Positions 202 to 6,210 of a DNA stretch of 64,000 bases are shown piece by piece (within the stretch, counting starts at the first letter, position 1; each line of letters begins with the position of its first letter). Source of the DNA: Alphaproteobacteria bacterium (lineage in GTDB: Bacteria > Pseudomonadota > Alphaproteobacteria > RF32 > CAG-239). The stretch covers positions 41,375-105,374 of the forward strand of contig JAZLEQ010000042.1 in assembly GCA_045615365.1 (NCBI GenBank), in the 5' to 3' direction. The position numbers were made by a program, and so were the translations under genes. A model generated the notes under the pieces. It did not search any database. It had not been told where the DNA came from and saw only the letters and a program-made list of their open reading frames with translations.

Positions 202-2163
202 ATGAGTGAAGCAACAGACAAAATCCGCGGAAACGTTGCAAAAATCATAGAAAACAGGCCAACGAATCCTCATCCCAACAATAAAACACCTTCGGCAAAC
301 GTAAATACCACCGCAAACACAACCACAGCATCAAATTTCATTCGCGCTGCTGCAACCATGTATCGTGCCAAAACAAACCCGTCATTTCAAATGTCCGAAA
401 AGAGCAAAGATGACTACAATGCAGCACTCCAAGCCTATGCCGAAAAGCATGGAAAACCCCTTAACGATGTAAAAAAAGACACAACTCCTGAAGATATCAT
501 CAAATCATTCGCTCGCGATATTCAAAAAAATTCACAAAATTCCGAAGAAGCCACACAAATAATCAAAAAAGACATCGATTCGGCCTACAAAGACCATCCG
601 GACCAACCTGCTCCAACACCCCCTGCTCTTCAAGCAGCAGCCAATGTTCCTTATCTTACCGACAAACAATTTGAAGAAGCAGATGAAAAGACGCAAGAAG
701 AATATCTTGCAAGCTTAGACGGCTACGAAAAAGATCGCCTCACCGAACTTCTGAAAAACAAACAACAAAGCAAAACAAAAGATGAAGACAATGCCGCTAA
801 ACTCACAAACGATGAAGACAACCCGCTGCCTCATACGGAAGATGAAAAATTCAAAATTGAAGAAGGCGATATCATCAAATACCTGATGAAAGAGATAGTT
901 CTGGCTTCTGCCGCATGGGCAGGCAACAAGGCAGCCGGAATGATAGGAACATTTGGTTTTTATGTTGCCAGAGAAGCTTGGCACGCATATAAAAACCGCG
1001 AAAAAAACAACATTTCCGGATCTGCAAACGCTCAAACCAATCAAAATCAAAATCCGCCCCTGAGTCAGCCTCAAAATCAACCCCAAACTCAAGAACAAAA
1101 TCCAAAAGAACTTTTTGATGTTCTTACAAATGTTTCGCAAATAAGCTCAGAATTTAAAAACCTTTTTGACAAATACGAAAAAGGTTTTGATCTTGTTTTG
1201 ACCAATACCTTGGCGCTTATGCAACACAACGCTTATTTTGATGGAAACAAATATAAATACGCAAAAACTTTCAATTCTTCAAACAACAAATTAGCCGGCT
1301 TCTCCGCTTTTAATGTTAACGAAGAACAAAAAACAGAATGGAAAGATTTGCAAAAAGCCTATGACAAACAAAGGCTTGAATCCTTAAACAAAAAGTTAAA
1401 TCCGGAGCAAGATTCTGCCAAGCAACAACAAATAACCGATTGGTTTAACCAAGTAAATAAAAGTCACGAGGAAGCAATAAAAAACGAAAAGGATACCGTT
1501 TCATCCCCCTCTCTACCGACAGAATTTGAAAAAGCCTTAAAGGAAACAAACGAAGAAATTTCTCAAAAGATAGTCGTTTCTCTTCACAATCAAAAGCTTA
1601 AACGACAAAATGAGCTTTTTGCCTACATGTATGCATCATACAAAATAGTCGAGCTTAGTATAAACTCCCCTTCTGACCCCCGTCTCACACAAACAGAAAA
1701 TTTAGAAAAACTTCACAAACAACTGTTTGAAGAAGGTTCAATCATTTTCTGGAAAGCAGAAAAAAGACGTTTAAACGGAGAAAACATCCCCTCTCGCGAA
1801 ACAATGATTGAAAAAATGACTAAACTTGCCAAAGATTCTAAAGAGGCAAAAGAAAACAACGCTTCGTTCAACTTTCCATCTCTTGATCTGTCTTACAAAC
1901 CCAAAGACAATCAAGAAAAACAAACTCTTTTAGACTTTGCCCAAAACACAACCGTTATTGATTTTTACAAAAACGAATTAATAAATAAAAAAACTCACAT
2001 TCAAGAGCTTCAAACAATTTTTAACATGAATCAAGACCACGACACCAGAACCCTCTTAGATAAGATAAAAATACAACGAAATTCTTTAGAAACAGAACAA
2101 AATAATACAAAAATAGGTTCTTTCAAAATTAACGAACTGAAAACTAAAACGGTTGGTATGTAA
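202..2163 (+). CDS. hypothetical 653-aa low-complexity (K/N/Q/E-rich) protein with one central hydrophobic segment
   Basis: Long ORF with AAGGGG upstream of the ATG. One predicted TM-like stretch (LASAAWAGNKAAGMIGTFGFYVA) is followed by a QNQNPPLSQPQNQPQTQEQNP tract. No recognisable catalytic motif. Its stop overlaps the next start (TAATG at 2161-2165). Confidence 0.7.
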   Translation: MSEATDKIRGNVAKIIENRPTNPHPNNKTPSANVNTTANTTTASNFIRAAATMYRAKTNPSFQMSEKSKDDYNAALQAYAEKHGKPLNDVKKDTTPEDIIKSFARDIQKNSQNSEEATQIIKKDIDSAYKDHPDQPAPTPPALQAAANVPYLTDKQFEEADEKTQEEYLASLDGYEKDRLTELLKNKQQSKTKDEDNAAKLTNDEDNPLPHTEDEKFKIEEGDIIKYLMKEIVLASAAWAGNKAAGMIGTFGFYVAREAWHAYKNREKNNISGSANAQTNQNQNPPLSQPQNQPQTQEQNPKELFDVLTNVSQISSEFKNLFDKYEKGFDLVLTNTLALMQHNAYFDGNKYKYAKTFNSSNNKLAGFSAFNVNEEQKTEWKDLQKAYDKQRLESLNKKLNPEQDSAKQQQITDWFNQVNKSHEEAIKNEKDTVSSPSLPTEFEKALKETNEEISQKIVVSLHNQKLKRQNELFAYMYASYKIVELSINSPSDPRLTQTENLEKLHKQLFEEGSIIFWKAEKRRLNGENIPSRETMIEKMTKLAKDSKEAKENNASFNFPSLDLSYKPKDNQEKQTLLDFAQNTTVIDFYKNELINKKTHIQELQTIFNMNQDHDTRTLLDKIKIQRNSLETEQNNTKIGSFKINELKTKTVGM

Positions 2164-2636
2164 TGAAAAAAGCTCTCAAAATTCTAAACAAACTGCTGGT
2201 TTTGTCTTTTTGGACATTTATTTTCGTTTCCGTATTTAACAAACTAATTGTTATTATATGGAATTTTGATTTTCTGTCACAAAGGTCATGGCAAATTTTT
2301 CACGAATGGTTTATTACCAACAAAGGTGTTATAAACACTAAATCCGATGTTTTCCTGCTGATAACAATACTGTTGTTACCGATTCTTTGGCTGACAGGCT
2401 GTTTTTTCACAACCAAAATAAACTTTTTAAAACTTATTCTTACCATGTTTGACAAGCTTTTTGACAACTCAAAAAAATTTATTCCGGAAAGAATAGTTTT
2501 AAAAAACATCAAGAGCGAAGAAAAAGAACTTGAAGAAATAAAAAACGAAATAGAATCCTTCAAACCCAAAAAAACATCCTTAGCCTCCTCTTTGAGAGAA
2601 GAATTAACAAAAAAAATATCAGAAACAAAAAAATAA
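2163..2636 (+). CDS. small membrane protein, paralog of the N-terminal module of the next gene
   Basis: 157 aa with two hydrophobic segments and a charged coiled C-terminus. It shares an ordered set of motifs with ORF 2691-3956 (FW-IF, W-FD, W..W, G-VI, P-WLT, KIN-). Confidence 0.7.
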   Translation: MKKALKILNKLLVLSFWTFIFVSVFNKLIVIIWNFDFLSQRSWQIFHEWFITNKGVINTKSDVFLLITILLLPILWLTGCFFTTKINFLKLILTMFDKLFDNSKKFIPERIVLKNIKSEEKELEEIKNEIESFKPKKTSLASSLREELTKKISETKK

Positions 2637-2690
2637 CCTATTGTTAAACTTTTATAAGCTAATATAATAGAAAGAAAAATCGGGAGAATC

Positions 2691-3956
2691 TTGTTGAAAC
2701 CTTTACTGACATTACTAAAAGTCGCTGTTGTTGGCATTTTTTGGAGCATCTTTTTCATTGAAGGAATCCGTGTAATAATGCTCAACAACTGGTATTTCGA
2801 CATTTTTCGTCTGTCGCATTGGGTTCACGCATGGAAACTTTGGCAATCAGGTTGGGTTATAGACGACCCGAAAGAATGGGCATTTATTTTAATAGTTTTT
2901 TCTTTCATACCGGTTTGGCTCACCATATGGATTTCCCTAAGCAAAATAAATTGGGGTGCAATATTTGTCCTTTTAAGCAAAATTCCATTCAAAATCATAA
3001 ACAATCTTTTTGAAAAACAACTTAAGGTTTTAACAAACACCGCTTCGGTTAAGGTTGTCAAAAAGAAAAAATCATATAAACAGATTCGTCCTAAAAGTCT
3101 CTCAGGAGCCTTAGAAACTTCAAGTGCCAAGCCACAAACATCTTTTGAAAACAAACAACAACCGACTTTTCAACAAACACCAACATCTTCAACATACACC
3201 CCAACAACACAACCTGTTCAACAACCGGCTCAATCTTCTCAAACAAGCAGTTTTTCTCATTCTTTGTTTGATATGGACGACGACCCCATAATAGATTTTG
3301 ATTTGTTTGAAGAAAAAGAAACCTCAAAACAAGAATCGAAAGATTTTTCGGAAAAAAACAAAAAACAACATCAAGCACAACAAACTCCTCAAAAGAAGAA
3401 AACATCCGAAAAAAAACCAAACAATCAACAAACTCAAACTCCAAGGAACAAATCCGGCGAAGCCAATTCTTCTTTTGAAATCATCAAACAAAAAGGCTAC
3501 GACATCATCTCAGGAGCAACTATTGATAACACATTTATTGACTTTGTCGGTGTTTCCAAAGATGCAATTTGCATCTGCCTAAACGACAAAGAACCTGGTG
3601 ATTGGCTTGCTGACGAAGAACGCTTCAACGACGAAGAACCCCTATGGTTTTCCGAAAGTTCCCACCGCATTTCTCCTGTCAGAAAGATAGCTTTGGTGCG
3701 CGATGCTTTGGAAGAAAAACTCAAAAAAGCCGACCTTTCTTTCAATATTATTCCTTTTGTCATTGAACAAATAGGCAACATTATCAACGCAGAAGACATG
3801 CTCGATATATGGAAAGATTTAGGCATTAACGTAACCCGTATTGACAGAGGTTCCCCTCGTGAAATTCCTTTGTTTGCAAAAACTCTGGAAAAAGCAGAAT
3901 CTTCCGTAGATAAAAACGTATTTGAAAAAATCAAAAAAATATTAAGAAACAATTGA
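2691..3956 (+). CDS. membrane protein: paralogous N-terminal module, Q/P/T/K-rich linker, C-terminal NERD / PD-(D/E)xK-like domain (inferred)
   Basis: TTG start. The N-terminal 90 aa are homologous to ORF 2163-2636. The C-terminus (FIDFVGVSKDAICICLNDKEPGDWLADE...WFSESSHRISPVRKI) follows the D...(D/E)xK...W...SP(I/V)R order of NERD-type nuclease-related domains. The domain call is by eye only. Confidence 0.6.
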   Translation: MLKPLLTLLKVAVVGIFWSIFFIEGIRVIMLNNWYFDIFRLSHWVHAWKLWQSGWVIDDPKEWAFILIVFSFIPVWLTIWISLSKINWGAIFVLLSKIPFKIINNLFEKQLKVLTNTASVKVVKKKKSYKQIRPKSLSGALETSSAKPQTSFENKQQPTFQQTPTSSTYTPTTQPVQQPAQSSQTSSFSHSLFDMDDDPIIDFDLFEEKETSKQESKDFSEKNKKQHQAQQTPQKKKTSEKKPNNQQTQTPRNKSGEANSSFEIIKQKGYDIISGATIDNTFIDFVGVSKDAICICLNDKEPGDWLADEERFNDEEPLWFSESSHRISPVRKIALVRDALEEKLKKADLSFNIIPFVIEQIGNIINAEDMLDIWKDLGINVTRIDRGSPREIPLFAKTLEKAESSVDKNVFEKIKKILRNN

Positions 3957-3975: not shown

Positions 3976-6210
3976 ATGGCTATACAAAAAGAAGGTGAAG
4001 AGTGGAAAGAATATAACAATGCCGTTCGTTGGATGTCTATTGTTGCAATCGTCTCTTTATTAATAACAATATTTTTTGCAATAACCGCCATGCCTTTAGC
4101 CTATTTGGTAGGAAAAGGTATTTCTGCAGACAGCCTTGAAGATGTTAAAAAATTTTTATTTCTAACCTTTAATAAGTCTGGTTTTTTATTCAATCGCTAC
4201 TGGATTTGGATGAAACAACTATACGAATATCGCGGTCCTTTTTCCTTAAGTTTATGGCTTCCGATAATTCCTGTAATAAGCTTTCCCGTAGGGCTGGTAT
4301 TAGGAATTATCACCAACCCATATCGTTTTCAATCAAACATACACGGTTCTGCTCGTTTGGCAGATTTTAACGACATCAAAAAAATGGGACTTTTTGATGG
4401 CTTTTGCGTAGTAATAGGCAAATTCAAAGGTCGCCTGCTGAAAATGAACGAAACATTATCCGTTCTATGCTGCGCACCTCCGGGAACAGGTAAAACCGTT
4501 GGGGTTGTTATGCCAACCATCTTTAATTCACAAGGGATGAGCATTGTCGTAAACGACCCCAAGCCTGAACTTTGTTTTTCAACATCAGGCGCTCGCGCCA
4601 AAGTCGGACCGGTATTTATCATCAACTGGGGTATGGAAGATAGTCCTGAAGAAGGCATCTACTACCCGAGTTGGAACCCGCTTTCCCCCGGAGCTGTTCC
4701 TGTTGTTCCGTCTGCTCGTGATATGTATGTCGATTCCATGTGCAATATTTTAGTTGAAGACCCAAAAGGCGGTGCCGATCCCCACTGGTCAAAAACAGGT
4801 CGTGCAGCCCTCACCGGCTTCATCCATTTTATAGTATCAAAATGCGAACGAGCTCGTGCTAACGATTATTTCATCGGCCGTGTTTTTGAAGGAAAGCTTG
4901 ATGAAGAAGATAAAAGAGTTTTGGAAGGATACTATACATCAATGGGAGATCCCATGGCCGTAAAAGCCCTGCAAAATCTTCGCTCAAACACTATAAACAT
5001 TGATAACTATGTGCCAATCGGAACATGGAATCTTCTGCCTGAAAAATGGATTGGACATGAAGCCTGTATTGCCATGATTCTTGAATGGATCACCGAAGCA
5101 CAAATCAAACAAGCCCAAGAAATCAAACGTCGTTTAGAAGAAGGCGACCAAATGGCAGCCATGGCCGACCCCATGCGCGACCTTTTGGAAGCAGCTGTTG
5201 ATGAATGCCGCAAATTTGGCTATTCACCTCGTTCAATAGTTGAATTAAGCCAACTAAGCTCCATGCCTGACAAAGAACGAGGTTCTGTTCTTTCCACTGC
5301 CTTTGCCGGTATCAACATTTTCAAAAACTCGGCGGTTGTGGCTCGCACAAGCTTCTCCGACATCATGTTCAAAGACTTGCGTGGCTTAAAAGACCCCATT
5401 ACCGGCGAATTCAAACCCATCACCGTATACCTTTCGGTTAACCAAGTTGATGCCAGAGCTTTGAGTGTTATTTCAGGAACATTTATTGACCTTATGTCAT
5501 CCTATCTCATTGCCAACACACCAAACTTTGTAAACCCAACCGACGGAAAAATGGGACCGTTTCCTTGTTTATTTGCAATGGACGAGTTTCCGGCCATGCC
5601 CAAACTCAAAGCGGTTATTGACGGACCGGCCGTAGGACGCGGACAAAAAGTTTCATACCTTCTCATCGGACAAGACTTAGGACAAATTTCCGGAAAATAC
5701 GGTAAAGACGATTTGGAAACAGTAATATCCACCACCGCTTGCAAAATCATTCTTTCGCAAAACAACGAGCAAACAGCCCAACGTTTTTCCAAAATGATTG
5801 GTAACAAAACCGTTCAAACATCTTCATATTCAAAAAATGAAGGTGGGTTCTCCAAAGCGGCCAATCCTTTTGCCAAAAACGTAAGCTATCAATTAACCGG
5901 TGTCTCACTCATTTCAACCACCCAACTTTTGAGCTTACCCACATCTAAACAGGTTGTATTAATGCAAAACTACATTGACCGCCCGATTATGGCCGATTCT
6001 CCTCGTTGGTATCTTGATCCTAAGATGAAAGCCTTGCGAGCTCTACCTCCGGCACCAAACGTCCCCGATTGGATTGTTGCCCAACGCGAAGACATCAACG
6101 ACGACATGCTCGCCAAACTCGGAATCGAATACGACCCCGAAAACGATAACGAAGATTTTTCAGAGTTTGAAGAAGACAAATACGAAGAAGAAACAGAAGA
6201 CCAAGCCTAA
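3976..6210 (+). CDS. virD4: type IV secretion system coupling protein, VirD4/TraG family
   Basis: 744 aa with N-terminal TM helices, [15 protein letters not shown], Walker [18 protein letters not shown], Walker B-like LFAMDEFP and an acidic C-terminal tail ([19 protein letters not shown]). RBS GAGG lies upstream. Confidence 0.9.

Follow-up and report, generated by a model that had tools for sequence, protein, structure and literature searches.

A putative NERD-derived membrane protein encoded next to a VirD4-type coupling protein in gut Alphaproteobacteria

Tandem membrane paralogs and the adjacent coupling protein

We analyzed a 64,000-nucleotide stretch of DNA from an Alphaproteobacteria bacterium (assembly GCA_045615365.1, contig JAZLEQ010000042.1, positions 41,375 to 105,374; referred to here in its entirety as the window). 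The locus at its start consists of four co-directional genes, which according to the list of open reading frames (ORFs) encode proteins of 653, 157, 421 and 744 amino acids (aa; Table 1). Our subject is the last three of these: a short and a long membrane protein with related N-termini, the longer of which ends in a domain resembling the nuclease-related domain NERD, and a protein of the VirD4/TraG type, to which the type IV coupling proteins (T4CPs) belong. The pair of membrane proteins had first been picked out in a reading made from the DNA letters and their translations only (the sequence-only reading), and both of its ORFs were found where that reading had placed them. The stop codon of ORF 202-2163 overlaps the ATG of the short paralog (TAATG), a gap of 54 nt separates the short from the long paralog, and 19 nt separate the long paralog from the T4CP gene, whose ATG has GAGG 5 nt ahead of it. 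The long ORF opens with two consecutive TTG codons. Because the second of these (2694) lies 7 nt past GGGAG and yields the MKPLL start found in homologues, sequence comparison makes it the more likely true start.

Table 1. Features at the start of the window
Feature	Position	Strand	Basis
653-aa low-complexity, K/E/Q/N-rich protein	202..2163	+	ORF; no Pfam or NCBIfam match
Short paralog, 157 aa	2163..2636	+	ORF; hhalign against long-paralog N-terminus; hydropathy
Long paralog, 421 aa; likelier start TTG 2694	2691..3956	+	ORF, homologue starts, AlphaFold2, hydropathy
Putative NERD-like / PD-(D/E)xK-fold domain, residues 259-421	3465..3953	+	AlphaFold2, Foldseek, Pfam, hhalign, conservation
VirD4/TraG-type T4CP, 744 aa	3976..6210	+	Pfam, hydropathy, pairing, conservation

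The sequence-only reading held that the N-termini of the tandem proteins align with each other, and a pairwise comparison bears this out, with 28% identity across 90 residues (BLASTP E 8e-6). From related loci we drew 78 sequences of the short and 82 of the long paralog; when the two resulting profiles were compared with hhalign, the N-termini matched over 98 columns with a probability of 98.7%, an E-value of 1.7e-16 and a score of 98.5. Controls consisting of more than 20 column-shuffled profiles, one reversed profile and the transmembrane (TM) region of the T4CP scored between 8 and 19, and TM composition therefore does not account for the match. Altogether, these alignments confirm that the short and long genes are paralogous in their membrane module.

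Hydropathy places two hydrophobic segments in each paralog, at residues ~5-32 and ~59-86, with a neutral, Trp-rich loop between them that contains 5 W within residues 33-62 of the long protein and 3 in the short one; the Trp-rich membrane module described earlier is thus recovered in both. The N-terminus is basic, and residues 85-140 of the long protein hold 13 K/R versus 1 D/E. Under the positive-inside rule, the module is probably an N-in/C-in hairpin that exposes the Trp-rich loop on the periplasmic face. The loop of the short paralog is rich in both Trp and Phe, and its TM hairpin is followed by a conserved RIVLKN.K.S motif and by a K/E-rich, helix-like C-terminal tail, in agreement with the charged helix that had been noticed at its end. 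The short paralog has no NERD-like domain.

In the long paralog, the TM hairpin module (residues 1-117) is followed by a polybasic stretch, SVKVVKKKKSYKQIRP, a disordered linker (120-258) and a folded domain (~259-421). A full-length AlphaFold2 model contains four helices within residues 2-117, disorder from 120 to 258, where the predicted local distance difference test (pLDDT) falls below 50, and a folded C-terminal domain. The linker is K/Q/S/T/P-rich, much as the sequence-only reading described it (Q/P/T/K-rich), and is shorter than the 200 aa given there, at ~140 aa. Window positions 3050-3320 (residues 118-210) encode three short motifs that are conserved in close homologues, ASVKVVKKKKSYKEIRP, FSHSLF and DFDLF(E/D); Pro134 of the first is kept in more than 90% of the wide family. 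We regard these as candidate docking motifs. The RIVLKN.K.S motif of the short paralog is possibly related to them.

The long paralog belongs to a large family, with more than 1000 matches at 90%-identity clustering and at least 380 representatives at 50% clustering, which is unannotated and unnamed in the sources examined. Pfam, NCBIfam and PADLOC returned no match for either the 157-aa or the 421-aa protein, PDB sequence searches with the 421-aa protein and two family profiles gave chance matches only, and the contig index had no record of the exact 421-aa protein. A tblastn search against plasmids found no relative of the 421-aa protein, which argues that its gene is not a plasmid-borne accessory gene.

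The 744-aa protein matches the Pfam families T4SS-DNA_transf (4e-58), TraG-D_C (3.9e-22) and TrwB_AAD_bind, and contains a Walker A motif (PPGTGKT), a Walker B motif (LFAMDEF), an acidic C-terminal tail and, by hydropathy, TM segments at ~15-47 and ~89-115. On these sequence features, it is a VirD4/TraG-type T4CP. Its closest solved relative is Cag5 (E 0.0017), not DotL. The surroundings of the pair were compared at loci with a gene related to the long paralog, 80 of them from genomes at species level and 80 from metagenomes. Each of the related genome records is a metagenome-assembled genome of gut or rumen origin that carries the label Alphaproteobacteria (for example 'Proteobacteria bacterium CAG:495' or 'Candidatus Scatocola'); we take these to represent the GTDB order RF32. 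The sequence-only reading had remarked that the long paralog lies beside a translocation ATPase gene, and this adjacency proved to be without exception: a T4CP gene lies directly 3' of the long paralog, on the same strand, in all 141 loci whose downstream sequence extends for 800 nt or more. The pair is not tied to one chromosomal setting, being found in at least three that are unrelated (yacG/rng/maf/dksA, lolA/rpmI-rplT-pheST and hupB).

The T4CPs found beside distant members of the family are 55-60% identical to the window T4CP, and the NERD-like proteins that accompany them are 29-31% identical to that of the window. The nearest plasmid VirD4 proteins, which come from complete virB4-B8-B9-B10-B11-D4 clusters, share only 31-36% identity with the window T4CP, and this difference indicates that the T4CPs of the pair form a co-inherited clade. 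Median identities within the order are 84% for DksA, 80% for the T4CP, 66% for Maf, 54% for RNase G, 52% for the long paralog and 33% for the short paralog; as judged from these values, the T4CP is conserved at the level of housekeeping proteins. Taken together, the sequence comparisons show a dedicated, vertically inherited T4CP clade that strictly co-occurs with the TM-NERD-like protein.

The C-terminal domain and its relation to NERD

An AlphaFold2 model of the C-terminal domain alone (~259-421), built from 53 diverse sequences, has a pLDDT of 95 and a predicted TM-score of 0.89. The full-length model has low confidence at a key loop, which the domain-only model, with its more diverse alignment, resolved. 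The elements of the model, which include H261-267, E271-278, E281-289, E292-299, H329-346 and E352-359, begin with a helix and three strands; three additional short strands come next, and then a helix, a strand, a second such helix and a last strand. In the model, the domain is built on a restriction-endonuclease-like alpha-beta-beta-beta-alpha-beta core that is interrupted by an insertion past strand 3, i.e. it falls in a nuclease-type fold and not in a non-nuclease one.

Foldseek searches of the PDB found no close solved structure, the best match being AF1548 (E 0.07, TM-score 0.43). All matches with a probability of at least 0.3 and a known fold are PD-(D/E)xK proteins (Card1, VC1899, the R2 endonuclease domain, EndoMS and N.BspD6I), and Hjc resolvases rank just under this probability; a further match, 3fov (probability 0.41), is a protein whose function is not known. 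The full-length model gave the same picture. Among the predicted viral structures of BFVD, the top matches reached probabilities of 0.95-0.99 and included a 'Nuclease-related domain protein' at 0.95 (TM-score 0.50). The E-values of the fold searches are weak (at least 0.005).

We then considered which family the domain is derived from. In a Pfam scan of 62 diverse members, NERD (PF08378) was matched by 20 at E <=0.1, with a best E-value of 2.9e-5, and no other Pfam family matched more than two. One distant member, P0246, scores 21.7 bits against the NERD gathering cut-off of 22.1 bits. The 421-aa protein of the window lies below that cut-off and has no Pfam match to NERD even to E 1. DUF2726, the other family that had been suggested, has no Pfam match in the window protein and is absent from the families listed for the 62 members, its sole trace being a BFVD structural match at rank 46 (probability 0.14). 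A canonical NERD set was assembled from pXO1-01 (Pfam NERD 2e-33) and 32 relatives. The hhalign comparison of the family with this set produced 151 colinear columns and a score of 24.7, versus a mean of 12.7 (standard deviation 2.1) for column-shuffled controls. These lines of evidence are each weak to moderate and agree with one another, and together they show the domain to be a remote NERD derivative. The NERD resemblance put forward in the sequence-only reading thus stands as a remote relationship on a restriction-endonuclease-like fold, and does not extend to a Pfam NERD or DUF2726 match of the window protein itself.

The C-terminal string quoted in the sequence-only reading is present and belongs to the most conserved part of the family: across 45 homologues, 33 of the 34 positions from D299 to K332 are invariant. 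The domain contains D284, D299, the invariant block GDWLADEERFNDEEPLWFSESSHRISPV and then QIGNIINAEDM with the invariant N366. W319, S328, P329 and N366 never vary in the family (100%), while W305, A307 and E309 are conserved in at least 95% of members, E309 in 98%. D284 aligns to the invariant strand-2 Asp of NERD (D68, in the IDH motif) and is present in the window protein and in 76% of the family; the remaining 24% keep every other motif and have S, N, P, A, G or Q in its place. The His next to this Asp in NERD is replaced by Phe or Tyr. Further along, G87-W of NERD corresponds to G303-D-W305, W98 to W319, and N111-P112 to S328-P329, with Ser in place of Asn.

NERD E81-x-K83 corresponds to residues 297-299, which are L-N-D in the window protein and variable-hydrophobic-Asp in the family. 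Strand 3 therefore does not carry (D/E)xK, since lysine K83 is replaced by Asp299, a position that is Asp or Glu in 87% of members. In an alternative ungapped register the lysine would be K300, which is invariant among close relatives and is Lys in just 10 of the 62 diverse members. E301 is likewise conserved within the closest relatives and present in 25 of the 62. The DKE catalytic triad proposed in the sequence-only reading is consequently a feature of close relatives only, as D284 is also lost in 24% of the family. The sequence alignments show that the catalytic lysine of E-x-K has been lost and make a canonical PD-(D/E)xK mechanism unlikely. Nuclease activity of the domain appears doubtful, because the triad is not family-wide, the lysine is replaced and D284 is often substituted. 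The role suggested in the sequence-only reading, DNA processing or sensing at the membrane, is conjectural.

Duplication, wider family and genomic surroundings

The short paralog lies upstream of the long gene in 77 of the 80 genome loci of the order; the lineages of P0153 and P0160 have no upstream paralog. A second lineage has two full-length tandem copies of the TM-NERD-like gene ahead of the T4CP gene (loci L116, L119, L121, L122, L124-L127, L130-L132, L138-L140, L151 and L160), the upstream one with a decayed motif, SVWTANET...PFW...SP. BLAST does not separate orthology from non-orthology of the short paralog and this upstream copy. Such recurrent duplication, with an upstream copy that is degenerating or truncated, suggests a hetero-oligomer or a regulatory decoy. 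Four of the two-copy loci (L138-L140 and L160) have an extra ORF of ~317 aa between the second copy and the T4CP gene.

Beyond these loci, the domain appears in other arrangements. It occurs as tandem duplicates in soluble proteins (P0240, P0259), and it is found in the standalone and fused forms that are considered with the proposed role below. The Roc-COR-TIR, AAA+ and tandem architectures are typical of conflict or signalling systems.

The region of the window is chromosomal and alphaproteobacterial, with a G+C content of ~35%. On the opposite strand, 3' of the T4CP gene, are yacG, rng, maf, dksA and fliX, and the stop region of the T4CP gene overlaps the end of the convergent yacG (6207-6210); rho, mnmE, mnmG, radA, polA, gyrB and parE are found elsewhere in the window. 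The 653-aa protein diverges fast, with 24-30% identity over full-length matches. Its gene is translationally coupled to the short paralog, with which it probably shares an operon in this lineage alone. The protein holds one conserved hydrophobic patch (GDIIKYLMKEIVLASAAWAGNKAAG...), and in L026 its gene is duplicated in tandem together with the short paralog. In close relatives, the string of genes opens 5' of what is the first base of the window, with genes for a 95-aa TM protein and an acidic 301-aa protein (L002:6087-7281). The former has a weak match to DUF6476 (4.8e-5, slightly below the cut-off) and the latter has no family match. The small ORFs beside the VirD4 genes of Microvirga and Erythrobacter plasmids were also considered as relatives of the membrane module and, by eye, are unrelated to it.

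Structural genes of a type IV secretion system (T4SS) are found nearby in one of 167 loci, L122, where the minus strand (L122:2059-5282) encodes a pair of VirB8 paralogs together with a VirB9/CagX protein that has a SPOR domain at its C-terminus, 5-8 kb upstream of the module. Genes for a carboxylesterase and a DEAD-box helicase lie in between. This scattered, duplicated layout recalls the vir homologue system of Rickettsiales.

Two more conserved genes, X and Y, which are absent from the window, follow the T4CP gene at 31 of the 80 species-level loci and at many of the loci from metagenomes (e.g. L041:14073-15114, L098:13299-14449 and L122:13527-15014). The product of gene X varies at its Pro-rich N-terminus and is conserved over a C-terminal domain of ~190 aa, which has no Pfam match and in which an HNH-like pattern, N.H[IV]K.P.D..G....F.N[LM]..I....P.H..[IL]H, can be made out by eye. 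Gene Y encodes ~145-155 aa with sub-threshold matches to SUKH/SMI1_KNR4 (1.7e-4 to 0.04). By its sequence the pair looks like a toxin and its immunity protein, and X may be a T4SS effector.

A possible role and comparison with known systems

How might the long paralog function? The reading we favour, to which we give about an even chance, is that the 421-aa protein serves the T4CP encoded downstream of it as an accessory subunit in the inner membrane, with a remodelled and possibly non-catalytic NERD-derived domain. The two-TM hairpins of the long (and short) paralog would associate with the two-TM domain of the T4CP in the inner membrane, and the NERD-derived domain would be tethered, by the polybasic stretch and the flexible linker, where the ATPase opens to the cytoplasm. 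This domain has kept the NERD scaffold and lost the E-x-K lysine; an acidic block (WLADEE...PLWFSE...SP) and an Asn, both invariant, have been gained. It would most likely bind or recruit a substrate, be it nucleic acid or protein, or else regulate the T4CP, rather than act as a canonical nuclease. The 157-aa paralog would probably co-assemble with the long paralog or compete for the same membrane site. The module would be part of a chromosomal, vertically inherited T4SS, with the remaining genes elsewhere in the genome. We favour this reading because the pairing is found at every checkable locus, in several contexts and with a conserved, co-inherited T4CP clade; because the paralog is recurrently duplicated, L122 encodes VirB8, VirB8 and VirB9, and SmdA of Staphylococcus aureus provides a precedent; and because of the nuclease-type fold, the NERD matches among the diverse members, the remodelled active site and the topology.

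The topology, a physical interaction between the long paralog and the T4CP, binding rather than cleavage by the NERD-derived domain, a role in secretion and membership in a complete T4SS are inferred rather than observed. Several points weigh against the reading, of which the indirect nature of the case for an interaction is one. Genes of the virB type lie near the module in L122 only; virB homologues are absent from the 64-kb window and from within 10 kb of the module in 166 of the 167 related loci searched, and a complete T4SS in this organism is therefore no more than putative. The NERD profile match is weak (E 0.006), and its score was reached by 1 of 60 block-shuffles. More distant family members with altered motifs such as NWMANEE and DWVVDET (P0246, P0237) stand alone among housekeeping genes, without a T4CP, and the domain is also found within TPR-X-Roc-COR-TIR proteins (P0205 and P0225; 1513 and 1565 aa) and N-terminal to an AAA+ ATPase (P0270, 529 aa). 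Given these standalone and fused forms, the activity of the domain is not intrinsically tied to a T4CP. Finally, a non-canonical metal site, and with it catalysis, may exist, since most members keep D284 and D299 and nearly all keep E309.

In one alternative, the domain is tethered at the T4CP as an active nuclease of a non-canonical kind, which nicks or trims DNA or RNA bound for the channel or arriving through it, with a metal site formed by D284, D299 and E309 as in lysine-less PD-(D/E)xK variants such as BamHI. The restriction-endonuclease-like fold and the conservation of D284, D/E299, E309 and N366 are consistent with such an enzyme, as are E301, which lies two residues past D299 in the clade of the window, and the place of the domain in the TPR-Roc-COR-TIR proteins, where it occupies the position of an effector domain. 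It is nonetheless unlikely, as the canonical lysine is missing, the residue in place of the Glu of E-x-K varies and is frequently hydrophobic, D284 is substituted in about a quarter of members that have all other motifs, E301 is present in 40% of members only, and the literature searched shows no NERD protein with demonstrated nuclease activity.

It could also be that the pair works without any T4SS, as a housekeeping inner-membrane device for DNA translocation or surveillance, in which the T4CP hexamer is the pump and the NERD-like protein handles DNA during uptake, export or the exclusion of incoming DNA. Such a device would fit a T4CP that is conserved like DksA, embedded among core genes, distinct from the plasmid VirD4 proteins and nearly always without virB genes within 10 kb. 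Scattered T4SS genes are, however, well known in Rickettsiales, which makes their absence nearby weak evidence, and the VirB8, VirB8 and VirB9 genes of L122 do lie near the module. The nearest characterized relatives of the T4CP are the VirD4 proteins of complete virB clusters, PADLOC found no match, and the toxin/immunity-like pair 3' of the T4CP gene fits an effector-secreting T4SS. We therefore consider the T4SS-independent device distinctly improbable. A defence system was rejected as the primary explanation, given the lack of a PADLOC match, the synteny with core genes and conservation typical of vertical inheritance. Lastly, both membrane proteins could have an envelope or cell-division role like that of SmdA, unrelated to the T4CP, whose gene would simply lie in their operon. 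SmdA is built on the same overall plan, and its NERD domain is degenerate (PMC9040797); standalone family members do occur among housekeeping genes. An adjacency that holds in 141 of 141 loci, over several lineages and contexts, and the co-divergence of the T4CP clade are hard to explain without functional coupling, and we regard this role as very improbable indeed.

If the accessory-subunit reading is correct, it describes a new kind of coupling complex, provides a testable role for the poorly understood NERD domain and suggests that secretion or DNA handling is a core function of an abundant but unstudied lineage of uncultured gut Alphaproteobacteria. What a T4SS exports is chosen by its coupling protein, and dedicated membrane adaptors are known mainly from Legionella Dot/Icm. 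The strict pairing and the housekeeping-level conservation of the coupling protein were unexpected. In its broadest form, which we offer as speculation with the odds well against it, an order of gut Alphaproteobacteria and some relatives would keep a core pair, a VirD4-clade motor and a lysine-less NERD-derived membrane protein, as a previously unknown coupling complex, either a new class of T4CP substrate receptor derived from a remodelled nuclease fold or an inner-membrane machine for the translocation or surveillance of nucleic acids that works independently of a T4SS.

The literature searched on NERD and T4SSs, on secretion systems of RF32/CAG-239 and on orphan VirD4 proteins contained nothing pertinent, and the pairing of NERD with a T4CP is not described there. 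A parallel in gene order comes from the Dot/Icm system of Legionella. There, DotM/IcmP (~380-420 aa) combines TM helices at its N-terminus with a cytoplasmic domain and recruits substrates; its gene lies immediately 5' of that for the coupling ATPase, DotL. The likeness of the long paralog to DotM is confined to gene position and the layout of TM helices plus cytoplasmic domain. Homology was considered and rejected, as DotM is not among the top 50 listed Foldseek PDB matches of either model, nor did the PDB sequence searches find it, and the window T4CP is VirD4-like, not DotL-like. The long paralog might thus be to its T4CP an analogue, not a homologue, of what DotM is to DotL. The closest annotated relatives of the T4CP itself are alphaproteobacterial VirD4 proteins (Erythrobacter aureus and Microvirga plasmids), which have the same domains, TM topology and Walker motifs. 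The window T4CP differs from them in sequence, as described above, and in that it is chromosomal and housekeeping-like, is not encoded beside virB11 and is always preceded by a TM-NERD-like gene.

With NERD proteins, whose prototype is pXO1-01 of Bacillus anthracis, the C-terminal domain shares the same core, with a ~30-residue insertion between strand 3 and helix 2, and the signature of strand-2 Asp, G-W, W and x-P is kept in the long-paralog family. In contrast, H69, E81, K83, Q115, N116 and H119, which are invariant in NERD, are not kept; the block WLADEE...PLWFSE and Asn366 are invariant features peculiar to the family, and the long paralog is fused to a two-TM module and always encoded beside a T4CP. 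A membrane anchor is also found in SmdA, a cell-morphology determinant that consists of a single TM helix and a degenerate NERD domain, requires both membrane anchoring and conserved NERD residues for function, and has no known nuclease role (PMC9040797). Compared by description, not by sequence, SmdA and the long paralog both have a membrane-anchored, cytoplasmic NERD-like domain that is missing several of the most conserved NERD residues, whereas SmdA is monocistronic, comes from Firmicutes, has one TM helix and lacks a T4CP partner. Among degenerate NERD proteins tethered to a membrane, SmdA is the nearest precedent in function.

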